A stretch of DNA of 64,000 nt from a plasmid. Below the pieces are notes generated by a model. It saw only the letters and a program-made list of their open reading frames with translations, was not told the origin of the DNA and made no database searches. Both the position numbers and the translations under genes were made by a program. Shown here in pieces: positions 1 through 35,746 of this stretch. The stretch lies in NCBI RefSeq assembly GCF_056746865.1, contig NZ_JBWKMP010000004.1; one strand, 5' to 3'. The first letter of the stretch is position 1; every line of letters begins with the position of its first letter.

Positions 1-858
1 GTGACTGATCTTCAACAAACTTATTACCGCCAGGTAAAGAACCCGAATCCGGTGTTTACACCCCGTGAAGGTGCCGGAACGCTGAAGTTTTGCGAAAAAC
101 TGATGGAAAAGGCGGTAGGCTTCACCTCCCGTTTTGATTTCGCCATTCATGTGGCACATGCCCGTTCGCGTGGTCTGCGTCGGCGCATGCCACCGGTACT
201 GCGTCGTCGGGCTATTGATGCGCTGCTGCAGGGGCTCTGTTTTCACTATGATCCGCTGGCCAACCGTGTCCAGTGCTCCATCACCACGCTGGCCATTGAG
301 TGTGGACTGGCGACGGAGTCTGATGCCGGAGTACTCTCCATCACCCGTGCCACCCGTGCCCTGACGTCCCTGGCTGAGCTGGGTCTGATTACCTACCAGA
401 CGGAATATGACCCGCTTATTGGTTGCAACATTCCGACCGATATCACGTTCACACCGGCGCTGTTTGCCGCTCTCGATGTGTCTGAGGTGGCGGTGGCTTC
501 CGCACGCCGCAGCCGTGTGGAATGGGAAAACAGACAACGCAAAAAGCAGGGGCTGGATACCCTGGGCATGGATGAACTGATAGCGAAAGCCTGGCGTTTT
601 GTTCGTGAGCGTTTCCGCAGTTACCAGACAGAGCTTAAGTCCCGGGGAATAAAGCGTGCCCGTGCGCGTCGTGATGCGGACAGGGAACGTCAGGATATTA
701 TCACCCTGGTGAAACGGCAGCTGACGCGCGAAATCGCGGAAGGGCGCTTCACTGCCAGTCGTGAGGCGGTAAAACGTGAAGTGGAGCGTCGTGTGAAGGA
801 GCGCATGATTCTGTCACGTAACCGCAATTACAGCCGGCTGGCCACAGCTTCCCCCTGA
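1..858 (+). CDS. repA1: IncFII replication initiator RepA1
   Basis: 285-aa ORF with GTG start at window position 1; sequence ([20 protein letters not shown] ... [14 protein letters not shown]) matches RepFIIA RepA1 from memory. Confidence 0.85.
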
Positions 859-859
859 A

Positions 860-1250
860 AGTGACCTCTTCTGAATAATCCGGCCCGAACCGGAGGCATT
901 CGCACGCCTGAAGCCTGCCAGCGAACAAAAAATCAGCACCACATACAAAAAACAACCTCACTATCCACCTTCTGGAGCATCCGGTTCCCCCTGTTTTTAA
1001 TACAAAATGCGCCTCAGCGACGGGGAATTTTGCTTATCCACATTTAACTGCAAGGGACTTCCCCATAAGGTTACAACCGTTCATGTCATAAAGCGCCAGC
1101 CGCCAGTCTTACAGGGTGCAATGTATCTTTTAAACACCTGTTTATATCTCCTTTAAACTACTTAATTACATTCATTTAAAAAGAAAACCTATTCACTGCC
1201 TGTCCTGTGGACAGACAGATATGCACCTCCCACCGCAAGCGGCGGGCCCC
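860..1250. other. putative replication origin region (oriR) downstream of repA1
   Basis: positional inference from R100-type replicon organisation; AT-rich stretch near 1130-1190; not verified by motif search. Confidence 0.3.
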
Positions 1251-1796
1251 GACCGGAGCCACTTTAGTTACAACACACAAAAACAACCTCCAGAAAAACC
1301 CCGGTCCAGCGCAGAACCGAAACCACAAAGCCCCTCCCTCATAACTGAAAAGCGGCCCCGCCCCGGCCCAAAGGGCCGGAACAGAGTCGCTTTTAATTAT
1401 GAATGTTGTAACTACATCTTCATCGCTGTCAGTCTTCTCGCTGGAAGTTCTCAGTACACGCTCGTAAGCGGCCCTCACGGCCCGCTAACGCGGAGATACG
1501 CCCCGACTTCGGGTAAACCCTCGTCGGGACCACTCCGACCGCGCACAGAAGCTCTCTCATGGCTGAAAGCGGGTATGGTCTGGCAGGGCTGGGGATGGGT
1601 AAGGTGAAATCTATCAATCAGTACCGGCTTACGCCGGGCTTCGGCGGTTTTACTCCTGTATCATATGAAACAACAGAGTGCCGCCTTCCATGCCGCTGAT
1701 GCGGCATATCCTGGTAACGATATCTGAATTGTTATACATGTGTATATACGTGGTAATGACAAAAATAGGACAAGTTAAAAATTTACAGGCGATGCA

Positions 1797-2450
1797 ATGA
1801 TTCAAACACGTAATCAATATCTGCAGTTTATGCTGGTTATGCTGGCTGCATGGGGCATTAGTTGGGGAGCCAGATTTGTCATGGAGCAGGCCGTTCTGCT
1901 TTATGGATCAGGAAAAAACTATTTGTTCTTCAGTCATGGTACTGTTCTGATGTACCTGCTGTGTGTTTTCCTGGTATACCGCCGTTGGATAGCTCCGCTA
2001 CCGGTCGTTGGTCAGCTGCGCAACGTTGGCGTACCGTGGCTGGTCGGTGCGATGGCCGTGGTGTATGTCGGTGTATTTCTGCTCGGTAAGGCGCTGGCTC
2101 TGCCTGCTGAGCCATTTATGACGAAACTTTTTGCCGATAAGTCCATACCTGACGTGATCCTGACGTTGCTGACCATCTTTATCCTTGCCCCGTTGAATGA
2201 GGAAACGCTGTTCCGGGGGATTATGCTGAACGTCTTCCGTTCACGGTACTGCTGGACGATGTGGCTGGGGGCGCTGATAACGTCGTTGTTGTTCGTCGCC
2301 GCGCACAGCCAGTATCAGAACCTGCTGACACTGGCAGAACTGTTCCTGGTGGGGTTGATTACATCAGTGGCCAGGATCAGAAGTGGTGGCCTGCTGCTGC
2401 CGGTATTGCTGCATATGGAAGCAACCACGCTGGGTTTACTGTTTGGTTGA
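1797..2450 (+). CDS. CPBP-family intramembrane metalloprotease (CAAX protease-like)
   Basis: 217-aa hydrophobic ORF with EETLFRG motif typical of CPBP/Abi family; common neighbour of pemIK on IncF plasmids. Confidence 0.65.
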   Translation: MIQTRNQYLQFMLVMLAAWGISWGARFVMEQAVLLYGSGKNYLFFSHGTVLMYLLCVFLVYRRWIAPLPVVGQLRNVGVPWLVGAMAVVYVGVFLLGKALALPAEPFMTKLFADKSIPDVILTLLTIFILAPLNEETLFRGIMLNVFRSRYCWTMWLGALITSLLFVAAHSQYQNLLTLAELFLVGLITSVARIRSGGLLLPVLLHMEATTLGLLFG

Positions 2451-2542
2451 AAGTTATATTTTTATTAAACATTGTGCGTTAAAGCCTGGTGTGTTTTTTT
2501 AGTGGATGTTATATTTAAATATAACTTTTATGGAGGTGAAGA

Positions 2543-2800
2543 ATGCATACCACCCGACTGAAGAGGGTTGGCGGCTCAGTTATGCTGACCGTCCCACCGG
2601 CACTGCTGAATGCGCTGTCTCTGGGCACAGATAATGAAGTTGGCATGGTCATTGATAATGGCCGGCTGATTGTTGAGCCGTACAGACGCCCGCAATATTC
2701 ACTGGCTGAGCTACTGGCACAGTGTGATCCGAATGCTGAAATATCAGCTGAAGAACGAGAATGGCTGGATGCACCGGCGACTGGTCAGGAGGAAATCTGA
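2543..2800 (+). CDS. pemI: PemI antitoxin (MazE-like)
   Basis: 85-aa ORF MHTTRLKRVGGSVMLTVPPALL..., stop immediately before pemK start. Confidence 0.9.
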   Translation: MHTTRLKRVGGSVMLTVPPALLNALSLGTDNEVGMVIDNGRLIVEPYRRPQYSLAELLAQCDPNAEISAEEREWLDAPATGQEEI

Positions 2801-2801
2801 C

Positions 2802-3134
2802 ATGGAAAGAGGGGAAATCTGGCTTGTCTCGCTTGATCCTACCGCAGGTCATGAGCAGCAGGGAACGCGGCCGGTGCTGATTGTCACACCGGCGGCCTTT
2901 AATCGCGTGACCCGCCTGCCTGTTGTTGTGCCCGTAACCAGCGGAGGCAATTTTGCCCGCACTGCCGGCTTTGCGGTGTCGTTGGATGGTGTTGGCATAC
3001 GTACCACAGGTGTTGTACGTTGCGATCAACCCCGGACAATTGATATGAAAGCACGGGGCGGAAAACGACTCGAACGGGTTCCGGAGACTATCATGAACGA
3101 AGTTCTTGGCCGCCTGTCCACTATTCTGACTTGA
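2802..3134 (+). CDS. pemK: PemK toxin (MazF-like endoribonuclease)
   Basis: ATG at 2802 gives 110-aa MERGEIWLVSLDPTAGHEQQGTRPVLIV... ; track ORF 2670-3134 contains it in frame. Confidence 0.9.
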   Translation: MERGEIWLVSLDPTAGHEQQGTRPVLIVTPAAFNRVTRLPVVVPVTSGGNFARTAGFAVSLDGVGIRTTGVVRCDQPRTIDMKARGGKRLERVPETIMNEVLGRLSTILT

Positions 3135-3327
3135 ACATGGGGTTTGAGGGGCAACTGGATGAAAACGTACGATTTAGGGCACTAAAACCGCTGTTGTCCC
3201 ACCATTCTGGTGATTCCCAAACGTTATTTGGCTAAAAAGTAGTTTTGATGTGGTTTATTTTCCGAATTCCAAGCGCAGCCCTACTTTCTTGTGCGTATTT
3301 GCGTGTTTTGCGCAGTTTTGAAGTTCC

Positions 3328-3800
3328 GGTGATGCTGCCAACTTACTGATTTAGTGTATGATGGTGTTTTTGAGGTGCTCCAGTGGCTTCTGTTTCTATC
3401 AGCTGTCCCTCCTGTTCAGCTACTGACGGGGTGGTGCGTAACGGCAAAAGCACCGCCGGACATCAGCGCTATCTCTGCTCTCACTGCCGTAAAACATGGC
3501 AACTGCAGTTCACTTACACCGCTTCTCAACCCGGTACGCACCAGAAAATCATTGATATGGCCATGAATGGCGTTGGATGCCGGGCAACCGCCCGCATTAT
3601 GGGCGTTGGCCTCAACACGATTTTCCGCCATTTAAAAAACTCAGGCCGCAGTCGGTAACCTCGCGCATACAGCCGGGCAGTGACGTCATCGTCTGCGCGG
3701 AAATGGACGAACAGTGGGGATACGTCGGGGCTAAATCGCGCCAGCGCTGGCTGTTTTACGCGTATGACAGGCTCCGGAAGACGGTTGTTGCGCACGTATT
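3328..3800 (+). mobile_element. IS1, 5' portion (IRL + insA + start of insB), truncated
   Basis: begins GGTGATGCTGCCAACTTACTGAT (IS1 IRL); InsA ORF 3383-3658; ends where a Tn3-family IR begins at 3801. Confidence 0.85.
3383..3658 (+). CDS. insA: IS1 InsA
   Basis: 91-aa [43 protein letters not shown]... Confidence 0.85.
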
Positions 3801-4392
3801 GGGGTCTGACGCTCAGTGGAACGAAAACTCACGTTAAGCAACGTTTTCTGCCTCTGACGCCTCTTTTAATGGTCTCAGATGTCCTTTGGTCACCAGTTCT
3901 GCCAGCGTGAAGGAATAATGGCCGAGCATATTGATATGTCCGTGGCAAAGCGGGGAGAGGCGTGCGATATCTTCATCATTCAGTGTTTCACCCTGCGCCC
4001 GGAGATGATCCAGGGCTGCCTGCATATAAATAGTGTTCCATAACACGACGGCGTTAGTGACCAGCCCCAGTGCGCCCAGTTGATCTTCCTGACCGTCGGT
4101 ATATCGTTTTCTTATCTCACCTTTTTGACCGTGACAGATGGCTCTGGCAACGGCATGGCGACTTTCTCCCCGATTAAGCTGGGTCAGAATGCGCCGGCGG
4201 TAATCTTCATCATCAATATAATTAAGCAGATACAGCGTTTTGTTGATGCGCCCCACTTCAATGATTGCCTGAGTCAGTCCGGAAGGACGTTCACTTTTCA
4301 GCAATGAACGGACCAGCACTGAAGCCTGTACTTTGCCCAGCTTCAGGGAGCCAGCGGTCCGGATCATTTCGTCCCACTGAAGGACTATTTTT
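3801..4392 (-). mobile_element. Tn2/Tn3-type transposon end: 38-bp IR plus 3' end of tnpA, truncated by IS26
   Basis: GGGGTCTGACGCTCAGTGGAACGAAAACTCACGTTAAG at 3801-3838; minus-strand frame encodes TnpA C-terminus ...LAELVTKGHLRPLKEASEAENVA. Confidence 0.8.
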
Positions 4393-5212
4393 GGCACTGT
4401 TGCAAAGTTAGCGATGAGGCAGCCTTTTGTCTTATTCAAAGGCCTTACATTTCAAAAACTCTGCTTACCAGGCGCATTTCGCCCAGGGGATCACCATAAT
4501 AAAATGCTGAGGCCTGGCCTTTGCGTAGTGCACGCATCACCTCAATACCTTTGATGGTGGCGTAAGCCGTCTTCATGGATTTAAATCCCAGCGTGGCGCC
4601 GATTATCCGTTTCAGTTTGCCATGATCGCATTCAATCACGTTGTTCCGGTACTTAATCTGTCGGTGTTCAACGTCAGACGGGCACCGGCCTTCGCGTTTG
4701 AGCAGAGCAAGCGCGCGACCATAGGCGGGCGCTTTATCCGTGTTGATGAATCGCGGGATCTGCCACTTCTTCACGTTGTTGAGGATTTTACCCAGAAACC
4801 GGTATGCAGCTTTGCTGTTACGACGGGAGGAGAGATAAAAATCGACAGTGCGGCCCCGGCTGTCGACGGCCCGGTACAGATACGCCCAGCGGCCATTGAC
4901 CTTCACGTAGGTTTCATCCATGTGCCACGGGCAAAGATCGGAAGGGTTACGCCAGTACCAGCGCAGCCGTTTTTCCATTTCAGGCGCATAACGCTGAACC
5001 CAGCGGTAAATCGTGGAGTGATCGACATTCACTCCGCGTTCAGCCAGCATCTCCTGCAGCTCACGGTAACTGATGCCGTATTTGCAGTACCAGCGTACGG
5101 CCCACAGAATGATGTCACGCTGAAAATGCCGGCCTTTGAATGGGTTCATGTGCAGCTCCATCAGCAAAAGGGGATGATAAGTTTATCACCACCGACTATT
5201 TGCAACAGTGCC
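4393..5212 (-). mobile_element. IS26 (copy 1, 820 bp)
   Basis: 14-bp terminal IRs GGCACTGTTGCAAA at both ends; internal tnp26. Confidence 0.95.
4445..5149 (-). CDS. tnpA: IS26 transposase Tnp26
   Basis: 234-aa [31 protein letters not shown]... Confidence 0.95.
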   Translation of the reverse strand: MNPFKGRHFQRDIILWAVRWYCKYGISYRELQEMLAERGVNVDHSTIYRWVQRYAPEMEKRLRWYWRNPSDLCPWHMDETYVKVNGRWAYLYRAVDSRGRTVDFYLSSRRNSKAAYRFLGKILNNVKKWQIPRFINTDKAPAYGRALALLKREGRCPSDVEHRQIKYRNNVIECDHGKLKRIIGATLGFKSMKTAYATIKGIEVMRALRKGQASAFYYGDPLGEMRLVSRVFEM

Positions 5213-6297
5213 GCCGGCCCGAGATCATGGGGTGGGTGCTGGGCATCGTTTACCGCGTCATTGCCACGCACCTGGTCAAGAAAGCGGGCCATACCCACCA
5301 AGTGGCCAAGACGGGCGCGGTCACCCTGATCCAGCGTTTTGGATCGGCGCTCAATCTGAATGTTCACTTCCACATGCTGTTTCTCGACGGTGTGTATGTC
5401 GAGCAATCCCACGGCTCAGCGCGTTTCCGCTGGGTCAAGGCGCCGACCAGCCCAGAGCTCACCCAGCTGACGCACACCATCGCCCACCGGGTGGGTCGCT
5501 ATCTGGAACGGCAAGGCCTGCTGGAACGGGATGTCGAAAACAGCTATCTGGCCTCGGATGCGGTGGATGACGACCCGATGACACCCCTGCTGGGGCACTC
5601 GATCACTTACCGTATCGCTGTCGGTTCACAGGCGGGGCGAAAGGTGTTCACTTTGCAAACTCTGCCGACCAGTGGTGATCCGTTCGGTGACGGGATTGGC
5701 AAGGTAGCCGGGTCCAGCCTGCACGCCGGCGTGGCGGCCAGGGCCGATGAACGCAAGAAGCTCGAACGGCTGTGCCGGTACATCAGCCGCCCGGCGGTAT
5801 CCGAGAAGCGGCTGTCGTTAACACGAGGCGGCAACGTGCGCTACCAGCTCAAGACGCCGTACCGGGACGGCACCACGCACGTCATTTTCGAACCATTGGA
5901 TTTCATTGCAAGGCTGGCCGCCCTGGTACCGAAGCCCAGAGTCAACCTAACCCGCTTCCACGGGGTGTTCGCACCCAACAGTCGGCACCGGGCGTTGGTC
6001 ACGCCGGCAAAACGGGGCAGGGGCAACAAGGTCAGGGTGGCTGATGAACCGGCAACACCAGCACAACGGCGAGCGTCGATGACATGGGCGCAACGGCTCA
6101 AGCGTGTTTTCAATATCGACATCGAGACCTGCAGCGGCTGCGGCGGCGCCATGAAAGTCATCGCCTGCATTGAAGACCCTATAGTGATCAAGCAGATCCT
6201 TGATCACCTGAAGCACAAAGCCGAAACCAGCGGGACCAGGGCGTTACCCGAAAGCCGGGCGCCACCGGCTGAGCTGCTCCTGGGTCTGTTTGACTGA
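5213..6297 (+). pseudogene. ISCR2 (IS91-family rolling-circle) transposase, 5'-truncated by IS26
   Basis: frame continues from IS26 boundary; HMLFLDGVYV ... CSGCGGAMKVIACIEDPIVIKQILDHL matches ISCR2 transposase C-terminal portion from memory. Confidence 0.7.
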
Positions 6298-6327
6298 CGA
6301 GCCTGAAGGCCAACGATACCAATCAAA

Positions 6328-7212
6328 ATGCTGCGTTCACAGCGCCGCGGCAGGGATCCGCCGTGCTGGTTGTCGGAAAAGGAGCCGCTAGTGGGAAAGA
6401 GGAGGGTAAATTTTCAGCGTTGCTGGCTCCCCGTCAGCCGGATTGGGTTGCATCGCAGGGGTGTCGAAAGAGTCAACTGCGGTCCAAAGCTGTTGGACTT
6501 GGGTGAAAAGGGCGTTTATTCTTCCTATACGTGCCGCGTTCCAGGCGGCGACTATGAGGGCTATGTCGATGCCCATGTGCGCCGGCTGGAGGCGCTACGC
6601 CGGGCCGGTATCGTCGAGCGGATCGACGCCGACCAATGGCGCATCCCCAATGATCTGGTCAGCCGTGCCGCCGCCCATGACGCCGGCCGAGACAGTCAGG
6701 CCAGCGTTCGCGTCCTTTCCCCGGTCGATCTGAACAAACAGATCGGATCGGACGGCGCGACCTGGCTGGACCGGCGGCTGATCCACGGCGAGACGGCCGA
6801 CCTTGCGCCAACCGGCTTCGGGCAACAAGTCCGCGAAGCCATGGACCAGCGCCGCGAGCACCATATCGAACAGGGCGACGCCACCCGCAGCCGGGACAGC
6901 CGCGTCTTCTACCGGCGCAACCTTCTCGCCATCCTGCGGGAGCGCGAGGTAGCCGGCGTCGGATCGGATATGGCTTTGAGTAAGGGCCTGCCGTTCCGCG
7001 CCGCCACGGACGGCGAGAGCGTCAGCGGCAAGTTTACCGGAACCGTGCATCTATCGAGCGGCAAGTTCGCCGTGGTCGAGAAATCCCATGAGTTCACCCT
7101 TGTCCCGTGGCGGCCGATCATCGACCGCCAACTCGGCCGCGAGGTTATGGGCATCGTGCAGGGCGGGTCGGTGTCGTGGCAGTTAGGGCGGCAGAGGGGG
7201 CTGGAACGCTGA
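6328..7212 (+). CDS. conserved hypothetical protein of the floR module (often annotated as truncated virD2-like)
   Basis: ORF between ISCR2 end and floR, as in known ISCR2-floR contexts; start codon uncertain. Confidence 0.45.
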   Translation: MLRSQRRGRDPPCWLSEKEPLVGKRRVNFQRCWLPVSRIGLHRRGVERVNCGPKLLDLGEKGVYSSYTCRVPGGDYEGYVDAHVRRLEALRRAGIVERIDADQWRIPNDLVSRAAAHDAGRDSQASVRVLSPVDLNKQIGSDGATWLDRRLIHGETADLAPTGFGQQVREAMDQRREHHIEQGDATRSRDSRVFYRRNLLAILREREVAGVGSDMALSKGLPFRAATDGESVSGKFTGTVHLSSGKFAVVEKSHEFTLVPWRPIIDRQLGREVMGIVQGGSVSWQLGRQRGLER

Positions 7213-7428
7213 GTGCGCCCATGCCGCATTGCGAAGCAAAAGATAATCGGATAAAATGTAGCAATTCATATTCGTAAGCGTGGAGTAATCAGATGGGAAA
7301 TTCCAAGTCAGCAGACAAGTAAGCCGCAACAACCAGTATTGTTGTTGCGGCGCTCTGTAAGGCTAGTCTCATCTGATTGCTGACGAGCAGACGTCGCCCG
7401 GTATTCCTTAATCGAGGGTTGATTCGTC

Positions 7429-8643
7429 ATGACCACCACACGCCCCGCGTGGGCCTATACGCTGCCGGCAGCACTGCTGCTGATGGCTCCTTTCGACATC
7501 CTCGCTTCACTGGCGATGGATATTTATCTCCCTGTCGTTCCAGCGATGCCCGGCATCCTGAACACGACGCCCGCTATGATCCAACTCACGTTGAGCCTCT
7601 ATATGGTGATGCTCGGCGTGGGCCAGGTGATTTTTGGTCCGCTCTCAGACAGAATCGGGCGACGGCCAATTCTACTTGCGGGCGCAACGGCTTTCGTCAT
7701 TGCGTCTCTGGGAGCAGCTTGGTCTTCAACTGCACCGGCCTTTGTCGCTTTCCGTCTACTTCAAGCAGTGGGCGCGTCGGCCATGCTGGTGGCGACGTTC
7801 GCGACGGTTCGCGACGTTTATGCCAACCGTCCTGAGGGTGTCGTCATCTACGGCCTTTTCAGTTCGATGCTGGCGTTCGTGCCTGCGCTCGGCCCTATCG
7901 CCGGAACATTGATCGGCGAGTTCTTGGGATGGCAGGCGATATTCATTACTTTGGCTATACTGGCGATGCTCGCACTCCTAAATGCGGGTTTCAGGTGGCA
8001 CGAAACCCGCCCTCTGGATCAAGTCAAGACGCGCCGATCTGTCTTGCCGATCTTCGCGAGTCCGGCTTTTTGGGTTTACACTGTCGGCTTTAGCGCCGGT
8101 ATGGGCACCTACTTCGTCTTCTTCTCGACGGCTCCCCGTGTGCTCATAGGCCAAGCGGAATATTCCGAGATCGGATTCAGCTTTGCCTTCGCCACTGTCG
8201 CGCTTGTAATGATCGTGACAACCCGTTTCGCGAAGTCCTTTGTCGCCAGATGGGGCATCGCAGGATGCGTGGCGCGTGGGATGGCGTTGCTTGTTTGCGG
8301 AGCGGTCCTGTTGGGGATCGGCGAACTTTACGGCTCGCCGTCATTCCTCACCTTCATCCTACCGATGTGGGTTGTCGCGGTCGGTATTGTCTTCACGGTG
8401 TCCGTTACCGCGAACGGCGCTTTGGCAGAGTTCGACGACATCGCGGGATCAGCGGTCGCGTTCTACTTCTGCGTTCAAAGCCTGATAGTCAGCATTGTCG
8501 GGACATTGGCGGTGGCACTTTTAAACGGTGACACAGCGTGGCCCGTGATCTGTTACGCCACGGCGATGGCGGTACTGGTTTCGTTGGGGCTGGTGCTCCT
8601 TCGGCTCCGTGGGGCTGCCACCGAGAAGTCGCCAGTCGTCTAA
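7429..8643 (+). CDS. floR: florfenicol/chloramphenicol efflux MFS transporter FloR
   Basis: 404-aa ORF MTTTRPAWAYTLPAALLLMAPFDILASLAMDIYLPVVPAMPGILNTTPAMIQ... Confidence 0.92.
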   Translation: MTTTRPAWAYTLPAALLLMAPFDILASLAMDIYLPVVPAMPGILNTTPAMIQLTLSLYMVMLGVGQVIFGPLSDRIGRRPILLAGATAFVIASLGAAWSSTAPAFVAFRLLQAVGASAMLVATFATVRDVYANRPEGVVIYGLFSSMLAFVPALGPIAGTLIGEFLGWQAIFITLAILAMLALLNAGFRWHETRPLDQVKTRRSVLPIFASPAFWVYTVGFSAGMGTYFVFFSTAPRVLIGQAEYSEIGFSFAFATVALVMIVTTRFAKSFVARWGIAGCVARGMALLVCGAVLLGIGELYGSPSFLTFILPMWVVAVGIVFTVSVTANGALAEFDDIAGSAVAFYFCVQSLIVSIVGTLAVALLNGDTAWPVICYATAMAVLVSLGLVLLRLRGAATEKSPVV

Positions 8644-8670
8644 CCGACGACTGGTAGCAGGCCCGCTCCG

Positions 8671-8976
8671 ATGCGGCGCACTAACCATCGAAACCTCGTG
8701 AATGTCGGTATCCTGTCTGGCAGGATACCGCTCATTTCCCTTGTTCAGTTCATCGCCGTCGCCGAGCATCTGAATTTTCGGCATGCGGCCAAGGCACTTG
8801 GTATCAGCCAGTCGAGCGTCAGCGCGCGTGTGAAAGCGCTGGAGGATAACCTTGGTGTCCTGCTATTTGAGCGCCATGCGCGGGGCGTTCGGCTAACAGA
8901 CGCAGGCAGGCACTTCATGGAGCGTGTCACGGCGGGTGTCGATCAACTCGATCACGCAGTGAAGACCGCGGAGTGA
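8671..8976 (+). pseudogene. LysR-family regulator, truncated (downstream of floR)
   Basis: 101-aa N-terminal HTH fragment; classical floR-delta-lysR arrangement. Confidence 0.7.
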
Positions 8977-9087
8977 CGGGCACTGGCTGGCAATGTCTAG
9001 CAACGGCAGGCATTTCGGCTGAGGGTAAAAGAACTTTCCGCTAAGCGATAGACTGTATGTAAACACAGTATTGCAAGGACGCGGAAC

Positions 9088-9275
9088 ATGCCTCATGTGG
9101 CGGCCAGGACGGCCAGCCGGGATCGGGATACTGGTCGTTACCAGAGCCACCGACCCGAGCAAACCCTTCTCTATCAGATCGTTGACGAGTATTACCCGGC
9201 ATTCGCTGCGCTTATGGCAGAGCAGGGAAAGGAATTGCCGGGCTATGTGCAACGGGAATTTGAAGAATTTCTCCA
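9088..9275 (+). pseudogene. ISCR2 transposase 5' fragment
   Basis: MPHVAARTASRDRDTGRYQSHRPEQTLLYQIVDEYYPAFAALMAEQGKELPGYVQREFEEF then diverges where the tet(A) module joins. Confidence 0.65.
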
Positions 9276-10442
9276 AAGCCCGCGACGCAGCGCCGGCAGG
9301 CAGAGCAAGTAGAGGGCAGCGCCTGCAATCCATGCCCACCCGTTCCACGTTGTTATAGAAGCCGCATAGATCGCCGTGAAGAGGAGGGGTCCGACGATCG
9401 AGGTCAGGCTGGTGAGCGCCGCCAGTGAGCCTTGCAGCTGCCCCTGACGTTCCTCATCCACCTGCCTGGACAACATTGCTTGCAGCGCCGGCATTCCGAT
9501 GCCACCCGAAGCAAGCAGGACCATGATCGGGAACGCCATCCATCCCCGTGTCGCGAAGGCAAGCAGGATGTAGCCTGTGCCGTCGGCAATCATTCCGAGC
9601 ATGAGTGCCCGCCTTTCGCCGAGCCGGGCGGCTACAGGGCCGGTGATCATTGCCTGGGCGAGTGAATGCAGAATGCCAAATGCGGCAAGCGAAATGCCGA
9701 TCGTGGTCGCGTCCCAGTGAAAGCGATCCTCGCCGAAAATGACCCAAAGCGCGGCCGGCACCTGTCCGACAAGTTGCATGATGAAGAAGACCGCCATCAG
9801 GGCGGCGACGACGGTCATGCCCCGGGCCCACCGGAACGAAGCGAGCGGGTTGAGAGCCTCCCGGCGTAACGGCCGGCGTTCGCCTTTGTGCGACTCCGGC
9901 AAAAGGAAACAGCCCGTCAGGAAATTGAGGCCGTTCAAGGCTGCCGCGGCGAAGAACGGAGCGTGGGGGGAGAAACCGCCCATCAGCCCACCGAGCACAG
10001 GTCCCGCGACCATCCCGAACCCGAAACAGGCGCTCATGAAGCCGAAGTGCCGCGCGCGCTCATCGCCATCAGTGATATCGGCAATATAAGCGCCGGCTAC
10101 CGCCCCAGTCGCCCCGGTGATGCCGGCCACGATCCGCCCGATATAGAGAACCCAAAGGAAAGGCGTCGTCGCCATGATGGCGTAGTCGACAGCAGCGCCG
10201 GCCAGCGAGACGAGCAAGACCGGCCGCCGCCCGAAACGATCCGACAGCGCGCCCAGCACAGGTGCGCAGGCAAATTGCATCAACGCATACAGCGCCAGCA
10301 GAATGCCATAGTGGGCGGTGACGTCGTTCGAGTGAACCAGATCGCGCAGGAGGCCCGGCAGCACCGGCATAATCAGGCCGATGCCGACAGCGTCGAGCGC
10401 GACAGTGCTCAGAATTACGATCAGGGGTCTGTTGGGTTTCAC
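9243..10442 (-). CDS. tet(A): tetracycline efflux MFS transporter Tet(A), altered 3' end
   Basis: GTG-start 399-aa VKPNRPLIVILSTVALDAVGIGLIMPVLPGLLRDL...; C-terminus ends ...RRGLWRNSSNSRCT at the ISCR2 junction. Confidence 0.9.
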   Translation of the reverse strand: MKPNRPLIVILSTVALDAVGIGLIMPVLPGLLRDLVHSNDVTAHYGILLALYALMQFACAPVLGALSDRFGRRPVLLVSLAGAAVDYAIMATTPFLWVLYIGRIVAGITGATGAVAGAYIADITDGDERARHFGFMSACFGFGMVAGPVLGGLMGGFSPHAPFFAAAALNGLNFLTGCFLLPESHKGERRPLRREALNPLASFRWARGMTVVAALMAVFFIMQLVGQVPAALWVIFGEDRFHWDATTIGISLAAFGILHSLAQAMITGPVAARLGERRALMLGMIADGTGYILLAFATRGWMAFPIMVLLASGGIGMPALQAMLSRQVDEERQGQLQGSLAALTSLTSIVGPLLFTAIYAASITTWNGWAWIAGAALYLLCLPALRRGLWRNSSNSRCT

Positions 10443-10547
10443 GTCTGGCCTCCGGACCAGCCTCCGCTGGTCCGATTGAACGCGCGGATTCTTTATCACT
10501 GATAAGTTGGTGGACATATTATGTTTATCAGTGATAAAGTGTCAAGC

Positions 10548-34926: not shown

Positions 34927-35746
34927 GGCACTGTTGCAAAGTTAGCGATGAGGCAGCCTTTTGTCTTATTCAAAGGCCTTACATTTCAAAAACTCTGCTT
35001 ACCAGGCGCATTTCGCCCAGGGGATCACCATAATAAAATGCTGAGGCCTGGCCTTTGCGTAGTGCACGCATCACCTCAATACCTTTGATGGTGGCGTAAG
35101 CCGTCTTCATGGATTTAAATCCCAGCGTGGCGCCGATTATCCGTTTCAGTTTGCCATGATCGCATTCAATCACGTTGTTCCGGTACTTAATCTGTCGGTG
35201 TTCAACGTCAGACGGGCACCGGCCTTCGCGTTTGAGCAGAGCAAGCGCGCGACCATAGGCGGGCGCTTTATCCGTGTTGATGAATCGCGGGATCTGCCAC
35301 TTCTTCACGTTGTTGAGGATTTTACCCAGAAACCGGTATGCAGCTTTGCTGTTACGACGGGAGGAGAGATAAAAATCGACAGTGCGGCCCCGGCTGTCGA
35401 CGGCCCGGTACAGATACGCCCAGCGGCCATTGACCTTCACGTAGGTTTCATCCATGTGCCACGGGCAAAGATCGGAAGGGTTACGCCAGTACCAGCGCAG
35501 CCGTTTTTCCATTTCAGGCGCATAACGCTGAACCCAGCGGTAAATCGTGGAGTGATCGACATTCACTCCGCGTTCAGCCAGCATCTCCTGCAGCTCACGG
35601 TAACTGATGCCGTATTTGCAGTACCAGCGTACGGCCCACAGAATGATGTCACGCTGAAAATGCCGGCCTTTGAATGGGTTCATGTGCAGCTCCATCAGCA
35701 AAAGGGGATGATAAGTTTATCACCACCGACTATTTGCAACAGTGCC
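34927..35746 (-). mobile_element. IS26 (copy 4)
   Basis: 820 bp with IS26 IRs. Confidence 0.95.
34979..35683 (-). CDS. tnpA: IS26 transposase Tnp26
   Basis: 234-aa [10 protein letters not shown]... Confidence 0.95.

Follow-up and report, generated by a model that had tools for sequence, protein, structure and literature searches.

Two ISCR2 remnants around floR in an F33:A-:B- plasmid: a probable fossil of the ISCR2-floR module

The plasmid DNA analysed here (the window, 64,000 nucleotides) carries floR, together with its cargo neighbours and two ISCR2 remnants, at the left edge of an IS26-bounded multiresistance region of an F33:A-:B- plasmid. The cargo between the remnants (6533-8969) comprises a 5'-truncated DUF3363 gene, an intact floR and a lysR stub reduced to its HTH. 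The first of these, a VirD2-like gene remnant on the plus strand (6533-7212), begins directly after the ISCR2 boundary at 6532; its Pfam match covers profile positions 155-374/375 and starts from residue 72 of the annotated protein, and the CDS annotated as "hypothetical" at 6328-7212 is a chimera, whose codons 1-68 derive from ISCR2. The floR gene (7429-8643, plus strand) is a complete, full-length ORF for an MFS protein of 404 aa, with 99.75% identity in AMRFinder and a Pfam MFS_1 match at E = 1e-37; judged from these matches, its product is an exporter of florfenicol and chloramphenicol. In the lysR stub (8671-8976, plus strand, 101 aa) HTH_1 is the sole Pfam domain and no substrate-binding domain was found by Pfam; the ISCR2 boundary read from the sequence at 8970 places its final two codons and stop within ISCR2. 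A sigma-70 scan of 5100-9400 gave a single promoter-like site, upstream of floR (7229-7257), which does not exceed chance expectation.

The intact ISCR2 copy of pHNFKU92 (L002, 7554-9400; Rcr2 of 497 aa, annotated as ISVsa3) served as reference for both remnants. The left one lies on the plus strand at 5213-6532 and corresponds to ISCR2 positions 528-1847, with 100% BLAST identity over 5213-6531 (E = 0); its end is placed at 6532, where 100% matches in glmM-sul2 contexts terminate. The 527 bp that it lacks at the terIS end held the promoter and codons 1-137; still present are the codons for Rcr2 residues 138-497, with a stop codon that ends at 6297, and after them the 235-bp oriIS end. In terms of Pfam domains Zn_Tnp_IS91 is gone and Y2_Tnp is retained, and the HUH-like motif HFH (Rcr2 residues 188-190) falls within the retained part. 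The terminal part of the oriIS end (6482-6532, plus strand) consists of the hairpin-capable repeat GTCCAAAGCTGTTGGAC followed by GGGCGTTTATTCTTCCTATACGT; it is assigned by position and homology, matches copies from other contexts at 100% identity, and agrees with the published distance of about 240 bp between the ORF and this downstream end (PMC2725981). When the oriIS and terIS regions were folded as DNA, neither strand gave an energy better than that of shuffled controls (z between -0.59 and +0.13), so that the ends are assigned from homology and published positions.

An ORF at 5140-6297 starts from an ATG inside the adjacent IS26 and is in frame with the Rcr2 residues of the left remnant; it lies directly upstream of the cognate oriIS and retains the HUH-like motif and the Y2_Tnp domain. 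The terminal repeat of IS26 offers a -35-like TTGCAA (5200-5205), with GATCAT 17 nt downstream.

The right remnant (8970-9276, plus strand) corresponds to ISCR2 positions 1-307 and is 100% identical to intact copies (E = 7.7e-176 in BLAST against the reference). Many intact copies in different surroundings fix its start, 118 bp before the ATG at 9088, and the published ISCR2 geometry places terIS about 120 bp upstream and oriIS about 240 bp downstream of a 1491-bp ORF. The terIS sequence GGAGTGACGGGCACTGGC (8970-8987, plus strand) matches 18 of 19 bases of the published one (PMC9376610), and the LexA box CTGTATGTAAACACAG, described in PMC13393415, is located at 9053-9068 on the same strand. 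The alignment with ISCR2, the check suggested in the initial annotation, has a clear outcome: it assigns oriIS to the left remnant only, and the terIS end, with the Prcr2 region and the LexA box, to the right remnant only. The coding part of the right remnant comprises Rcr2 codons 1-63 and stops short of the first CxxC, which is at residue 76. It is joined to tet(A) through a 6-bp microhomology, CTCCAA (9271-9276), present in both parents: homology to ISCR2 extends to 9276, and homology to Tn1721-type tet(A) starts at 9271. Comparison with the tet(A) of pEC867_1 revealed that the gene (9246-10442, minus strand) has a chimeric 3' end, since codons 391-399 are antisense ISCR2 sequence and encode RNSSNSRCT in place of SGAGQRADR; PMC6052338 names the gene delta-tetA. 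The truncated-ISCR2/tet(A) joint is present in at least 1055 plasmids. The LexA-controlled Prcr2 region, retained in the right remnant, is directed into the 3' end of tet(A), antisense to that gene.

The initial annotation had described two partial ISCR2 copies bracketing floR, one cut by IS26 and the other at the tet(A) junction, and both copies, their incompleteness and both cuts are borne out by the alignments. The limits that it gave, 5213-6297 and 9088-9275, mark the coding parts, short of the full remnants at 5213-6532 and 8970-9276; likewise, the hypothetical gene, floR and delta-lysR do lie between the copies as it said, with the corrections that the first CDS is chimeric and that the end of the lysR stub comes from ISCR2.

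The IS26 that cuts the left remnant is a complete copy of 820 bp (4393-5212, minus strand; annotated transposase gene tnp26 at 4445-5149) with both 14-bp terminal repeats, and three further copies in the window match it at 100% identity. The cut is clean at 5212/5213; a first BLAST alignment, in which ISCR2 homology started at 5209, was a gapped-alignment artefact. No 8-bp target-site duplication surrounds this IS26, whose flanks are CTATTTTT and GCCGGCCC, and the flanks differ for all IS26 copies in the window; deletions or conservative events are expected to leave no such duplication, and its absence is still compatible with IS26 activity. The nearest IS26 sequence across the floR-tetA-strAB-sul2 block is a fragment of 231 bp in the same orientation (17830-18060, minus strand), and the next complete copy in direct orientation is found at 34927-35746 (minus strand). 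The two complete, directly oriented copies bound the multiresistance region of about 31 kb, a unit that includes two inverted IS26 copies.

The exact joint between IS26 and ISCR2 position 528 was found in only about 9 PLSDB records. One of them, the fusion plasmid pELE2-TC-308, has a different left neighbour of IS26, a change that is no more than suggestive of movement or cointegrate formation at this IS26; pE16EC0792-1 contains an independent joint between IS26 and ISCR2 position 537. The 284-kb fusion plasmid p2019XSD11-TC2-284 was also considered as joined at this IS26, and was rejected, since both IS26 flanks are unchanged there.

BLAST against the intact element found no other ISCR2 sequence in the 64-kb window, and a blastn-short search for small relics elsewhere in it, for example near sul2, gave 14-bp chance matches only. 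An intact ISCR2 with oriIS, the finding that would have contradicted the initial annotation, is therefore absent from the window, and so is a complete rcr2 ORF (497 aa, with Zn_Tnp_IS91 and Y2_Tnp): residues 138-497 are left in one remnant and 1-63 in the other, and ISCR2 positions 308-527, encoding residues 64-137 with the zinc-binding CxxC motifs, are missing altogether. At floR, oriIS, the transposase gene and terIS do not occur together in one copy with the cargo beyond terIS; the terIS that adjoins floR belongs to the copy devoid of oriIS, and replication from the only oriIS points away from the gene. Since this oriIS sits on the floR side of the left remnant, replication would head leftward into IS26. 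On this anatomy floR would be unable to leave the locus by an ISCR2-type rolling-circle route. No experiment has ever demonstrated rolling-circle movement of ISCR2 (PMC9376610); thus, "lost" mobility here means loss of a proposed mechanism.

Supply of Rcr2 in trans, from an intact ISCR2 at another site in the cell, for example on a co-resident tet(X4) plasmid, could in principle mobilise the module by rolling-circle replication, given that both ends, oriIS (to 6532) and terIS (from 8970), survive intact and that strain 2019XSD11, host of a near-identical plasmid, has ISVsa3 beside tet(X4). It is nevertheless very improbable: with oriIS at the 3' boundary of ISCR2 and terIS at the 5' boundary, replication would proceed from 6532 through the rcr2 remnant into IS26, no oriIS was found by BLAST to the right of floR in the window, ISCR2 transposition is itself undemonstrated and the activity of Prcr2 is extremely low. 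The left remnant, with its HUH-like motif, Y2_Tnp domain and in-frame ATG, makes residual nicking at the adjacent oriIS conceivable; if the truncated Rcr2 were made from the ORF at 5140-6297 and were able to nick, one-ended replication might begin there or leftward recombination be stimulated; the chance of this is as slight as that of the route in trans. Still less credit is due to site-specific recombination by the GIsul2 integrase at an att site overlapping terIS, as shown for the CR2-sul2 unit: the published attLR core GAGTGGGA does overlap the start of terIS and GAGTG directly precedes ISCR2 in three non-floR contexts, but in the lysR context ACCGC stands before ISCR2 instead, so that 8965-8972 does not hold an intact core, and the annotation of the record shows neither a second att site nor a GIsul2 integrase gene. 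Finally, release of a floR circle by recombination between the two ISCR2 pieces, as reported for ISCR2-flanked tet(X) units, is refuted by the sequence itself, despite the circular intermediates reported in the literature for ISCR2-flanked resistance genes, because positions 528-1847 and 1-307 have no sequence in common.

The preferred reading, to which a probability of about 0.9 can be given, is that the ISCR2-floR module, a well-known one, survives at this locus as a fossil in which ISCR2 movement has been lost and floR has become passive cargo of IS26 and of a pECB11-type conjugative plasmid. The first 527 bp of the left copy, with terIS, promoter and codons 1-137, were lost, most likely by an IS26-mediated adjacent deletion; we infer this mechanism from the left flank of IS26, identical to that of pHNFKU92, the different right flank with no 8-bp duplication, and the 3.9 kb that lie between these flanks in pHNFKU92 and are missing from the window, precisely as in the published account of pECB11. 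The right copy breaks off after position 307, where an illegitimate joint connects it to tet(A). To the left of floR there is now an oriIS directed away from the gene and, to its right, a terIS that lacks an oriIS behind it; no complete transposase gene survives. The present spread of floR may occur by conjugation (tra genes are found in the window), through cointegrates or translocatable units made by IS26, and through homologous recombination with floR or ISCR2 copies elsewhere. The initial annotation had proposed that the unit has probably lost rolling-circle mobility and depends on IS26 for movement. The absence of residues 64-137, the direction of oriIS, the lack of one in the right copy and the absence of any overlap between the remnants uphold the first proposal, on stronger grounds than it had given; the second is plausible and gains comparative support from the IS26 flanks, which lack a target duplication, and from the pELE2-TC-308 and pE16EC0792-1 joints, although few related plasmids stand behind a role of IS26, and conjugative transfer and homologous recombination are routes equally available to floR.

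The value of these results lies mainly in annotation and epidemiology. They correct three database artefacts, in that the ends of ISCR2 extend beyond its CDS, the "DUF3363 protein" is chimeric and the tail of tet(A) is ISCR2-derived. In a plasmid lineage widespread in food animals and in the clinic, floR appears locked in place with respect to ISCR2; thus, its spread is better tracked through plasmid and IS26 events than through ISCR2 transposition.

Comparison with known systems places the locus among familiar ones. Both pieces are 100% identical to ISCR2 (ISVsa3), an IS91-like ISCR element, and their oriIS and terIS ends lie at the published positions; the difference is that an intact element is replaced in the window by two incomplete pieces, with positions 308-527 absent. 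The canonical ISCR2-floR module, found in IncA/C, SXT-type and many other plasmids, has the order ISCR2, truncated DUF3363/virD2-like gene, floR, truncated lysR, ISCR2; the window has this cargo unchanged, as well as both of its joints with ISCR2, and segments 6100-6900 and 8600-9276 are covered to at least 80% in 1800 and 1879 plasmids, respectively. Here both ISCR2 copies are truncated, whereas a full left copy is present in pHNFKU92 and a full right copy in, for example, H79, H80 and H83. With IS26 translocatable units and pseudo-compound transposons the locus shares a module that abuts a complete IS26, with directly oriented IS26 sequence at 17830-18060 and 34927-35746; it differs from them in having no flanking target-site duplications and in having a fragment as its nearest direct repeat. 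The closest correspondence is with the F33:A-:B- region of pECB11 and pHNFKU92. In pECB11 the same loss of 527 bp at the joint of IS26 and ISCR2 was described, together with the order floR, delta-tetA, tetR, strAB, sul2 and a partial IS26 beside an IncN segment (PMC6052338); the window matches this description with a few SNPs and no substantive difference, and is 99.98% identical to p2019XSD11-92. The exact configuration is thus already published for pECB11-type F33:A-:B- plasmids (PMC6052338), and the locus is an ordinary one that involves no new biology.

Alignment of the window to the intact ISCR2 of pHNFKU92 (annotated CDS: ISVsa3 transposase, 497 aa) identified two pieces of the element: window 5213-6531 corresponds to reference positions 528-1846 and window 8970-9276 to positions 1-307 (E = 7.7e-176), both with 100% identity. 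In this alignment no further ISCR2 sequence was found in the window or in the remainder of the MN101857 record, apart from 14-bp chance matches. The element boundaries were located by searching window 6100-6900 and 8600-9276 each against 72,556 plasmids: ISCR2 from other contexts, among them glmM-sul2, is 100% identical up to 6532 and diverges after it, while intact ISCR2 from other settings begins to match at 8970. ISCR2 is 1847 bp long, with 118 bp 5' of the ATG, an ORF of 1494 bp including the stop codon and 235 bp on the 3' side; Toleman et al. give an ORF of 1491 bp, with about 120 bp upstream and 240 bp downstream (PMC2725981). The terIS is found at the 5' boundary and the oriIS at the 3' boundary (PMC9376610). 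GGAGTGACGGGCACTGGC (8970-8987) is the published terIS without its first G (PMC9376610), and the oriIS end reads ...GTCCAAAGCTGTTGGAC...GGGCGTTTATTCTTCCTATACGT, with its last base at 6532. The initial annotation had placed two partial ISCR2 copies around floR; both are real, but the limits assigned to them were those of the coding sequence only, and the correction matters, since oriIS and terIS lie in the 235 bp and 118 bp that those limits left out. With these boundaries the observation of two remnants is confirmed and its interpretation supported.

The left remnant (5213-6532) lacks, by alignment, the first 527 bp, comprising terIS, the promoter and codons 1-137; it retains residues 138-497 of the transposase Rcr2, including the HFH motif at 188-190, with the Pfam Y2_Tnp domain kept and the Zn_Tnp_IS91 domain lost, and the complete oriIS end. 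The right remnant (8970-9276) carries terIS, the promoter/LexA region and codons 1-63, ending ahead of the first CxxC motif of Rcr2 (residue 76). Both copies are incomplete, as had been proposed, the left one cut by IS26 and the right one at the tet(A) joint; oriIS is kept on the former and terIS on the latter, and intact ISCR2 is absent from the window. The LexA box CTGTATGTAAACACAG lies at 9053-9068; binding of LexA to this box upstream of rcr2 has been shown, and the rcr2 promoter is extremely weak (PMC13393415). A putative ORF (5140-6297) starts from an ATG inside the IS26 end and continues in frame into Rcr2 residues 138-497; TTGCAA (5200-5205), within the IS26 terminal repeat, is separated from GATCAT (5223-5228) by 17 nt. 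Residual activity of this ORF, or of the LexA-controlled promoter stub antisense into tet(A), is highly improbable.

On the right side, ISCR2 homology extends up to 9276 and Tn1721-type tet(A) homology starts from 9271, therefore the joint lies within the six common bases CTCCAA. For this reason the last nine tet(A) codons (9246-9276) are antisense ISCR2, encoding RNSSNSRCT versus SGAGQRADR in Tn1721-type tet(A). By coincidence the chimeric protein is still 399 aa long; AMRFinder assigns it 99.75% to a reference, thus the chimeric allele itself is in the reference catalogue. The joint occurs in at least 1055 plasmids, including small Shigella plasmids with non-floR sequence before the ISCR2 fragment, and it is old and widespread.

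Between the remnants, at 6533-8969, lies a cargo of three genes. The annotated 'DUF3363 protein' (6328-7212, 294 aa) is a chimera, the first 68 codons of which (6328-6532) fall in the oriIS end of ISCR2; the Pfam DUF3363 match, which begins at residue 72, is limited to profile positions 155-374 of 375, thus the gene is 5'-truncated, and its annotated start is an artificial product of ORF calling. Part of this remnant (6767-6900) has 90-95% identity to sul1-adjacent sequences of Aeromonas salmonicida and K. pneumoniae plasmids, which constitute a second lineage, now diverged, of this source region. floR (7429-8643) is intact, its 404-aa product containing an MFS_1 domain and being 99.75% identical to the reference, while the lysR stub (8671-8976) retains only the HTH_1 domain, its last two codons and stop being ISCR2 sequence.

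The window matches the E. coli plasmid p2019XSD11-92 (NZ_MN101857.1; IncFII/FIA, conjugative, from pork, China) with 99.98% identity, 5 mismatches and one 6-bp gap; at this locus IS26, 'DUF3363 protein', floR, a LysR-family regulator, tet(A) and tetR(A) are annotated. p2019XSD11-TC2-284, a laboratory fusion plasmid, differs from window 1-11362 at only four positions (6649, 7867, 7906 and 7910), all within the cargo, a pattern suggesting that recombination or conversion introduced a patch from a second floR copy of the donor strain.

Under the IS91/ISCR model, oriIS is where replication would begin; it would then copy the transposase gene and stop at terIS, sequence past terIS being taken along if termination fails. 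Such read-through carrying adjacent sequence is described for IS1294 (PMC6052338), and in the view of Toleman et al. a floR gene directly upstream of ISCR2 could be co-transposed. floR lies past the terIS of the right copy, but this copy has lost oriIS and 87% of the gene, and the sole surviving oriIS (6532) would drive replication to the left, into IS26 and not towards floR. The window encodes no complete transposase, and coding sequence for Rcr2 residues 64-137 is found nowhere in it. The loss of rolling-circle mobility inferred initially is thus borne out. Recombination circles between ISCR2 copies, reported for tet(X) units, cannot form since the remnants have no common sequence. The GIsul2 integrase uses the att core GAGTGGGA at the terIS end of CR2 (PMC9376610); in the lysR context ISCR2 is preceded by ACCGC (8965-8969), so the core is not intact, whereas GAGTG, which completes it, precedes ISCR2 in three non-floR contexts (pHNFKU92, L002, 7549-7553; two further records, L007 2496-2500 and L009 1501-1505). 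The lysR-ISCR2 joint was therefore formed by a different route from the others. Judged from sequence, both the rolling-circle and the integrase routes for floR appear closed at this locus, because of the oriIS/terIS layout, the incomplete transposase, the lack of shared sequence and the broken att core, with the caveat that transposition of ISCR2 itself has never been demonstrated (PMC9376610) and that its promoter is extremely weak.

IS26 (4393-5212, minus strand) has both terminal repeats, and ISCR2 starts at 5213. Compared with pHNFKU92 its left flank is identical and its right flank different, the 8-bp flanks CTATTTTT and GCCGGCCC show no duplication, and the 3.9 kb lying in pHNFKU92 between this IS26 and ISCR2 position 528 are missing, a pattern probably left by an adjacent deletion that IS26 mediated. 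On the other side, from pemK to IS26 (3383-4392), an IS1 fragment (InsA-like ORF, 3383-3658) and the 3' terminus of a transposase gene of the Tn3 family (Tn2; 3834-4439) make up the 'delta-IS1-delta-Tn2-IS26' arrangement reported for F33:A-:B- plasmids. Only about 9 PLSDB records contain the exact IS26-ISCR2-528 joint, each of them a pECB11-like plasmid or a fusion derivative of one; the fusion plasmid pELE2-TC-308 (L011 2831-3650) retains it with a different left neighbour of IS26, and pE16EC0792-1 (IncI-gamma/K1, human blood, Korea; L012 2831-3650) has an independent IS26-ISCR2-537 joint, 9 bp further in. These three comparisons lend support to IS26 activity at this site, and the proposed dependence of floR on IS26 is plausible; plasmid conjugation and homologous recombination with other floR/ISCR2 copies probably also remain as routes. 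The tra genes begin near 55.6 kb. A complete IS26 (34927-35746) and a 231-bp fragment (17830-18060) share the orientation of IS26 4393-5212, the fragment adjoining an IncN-type segment (mobX, helicase, methyltransferase); a RecA crossover between this fragment and IS26 4393-5212 would free a circular molecule of about 13.4 kb that carries one complete IS26 and floR-tetA-strAB-sul2.

All the components and both joints are already known from the literature, and the precise configuration has been published for pECB11, which lost 'IS26-5'CS-3'CS', a 2,157-bp segment and '527 bp of the terIS end of ISCR2' (PMC6052338), and whose IS26/ISCR2 configuration is the same as that of the window.
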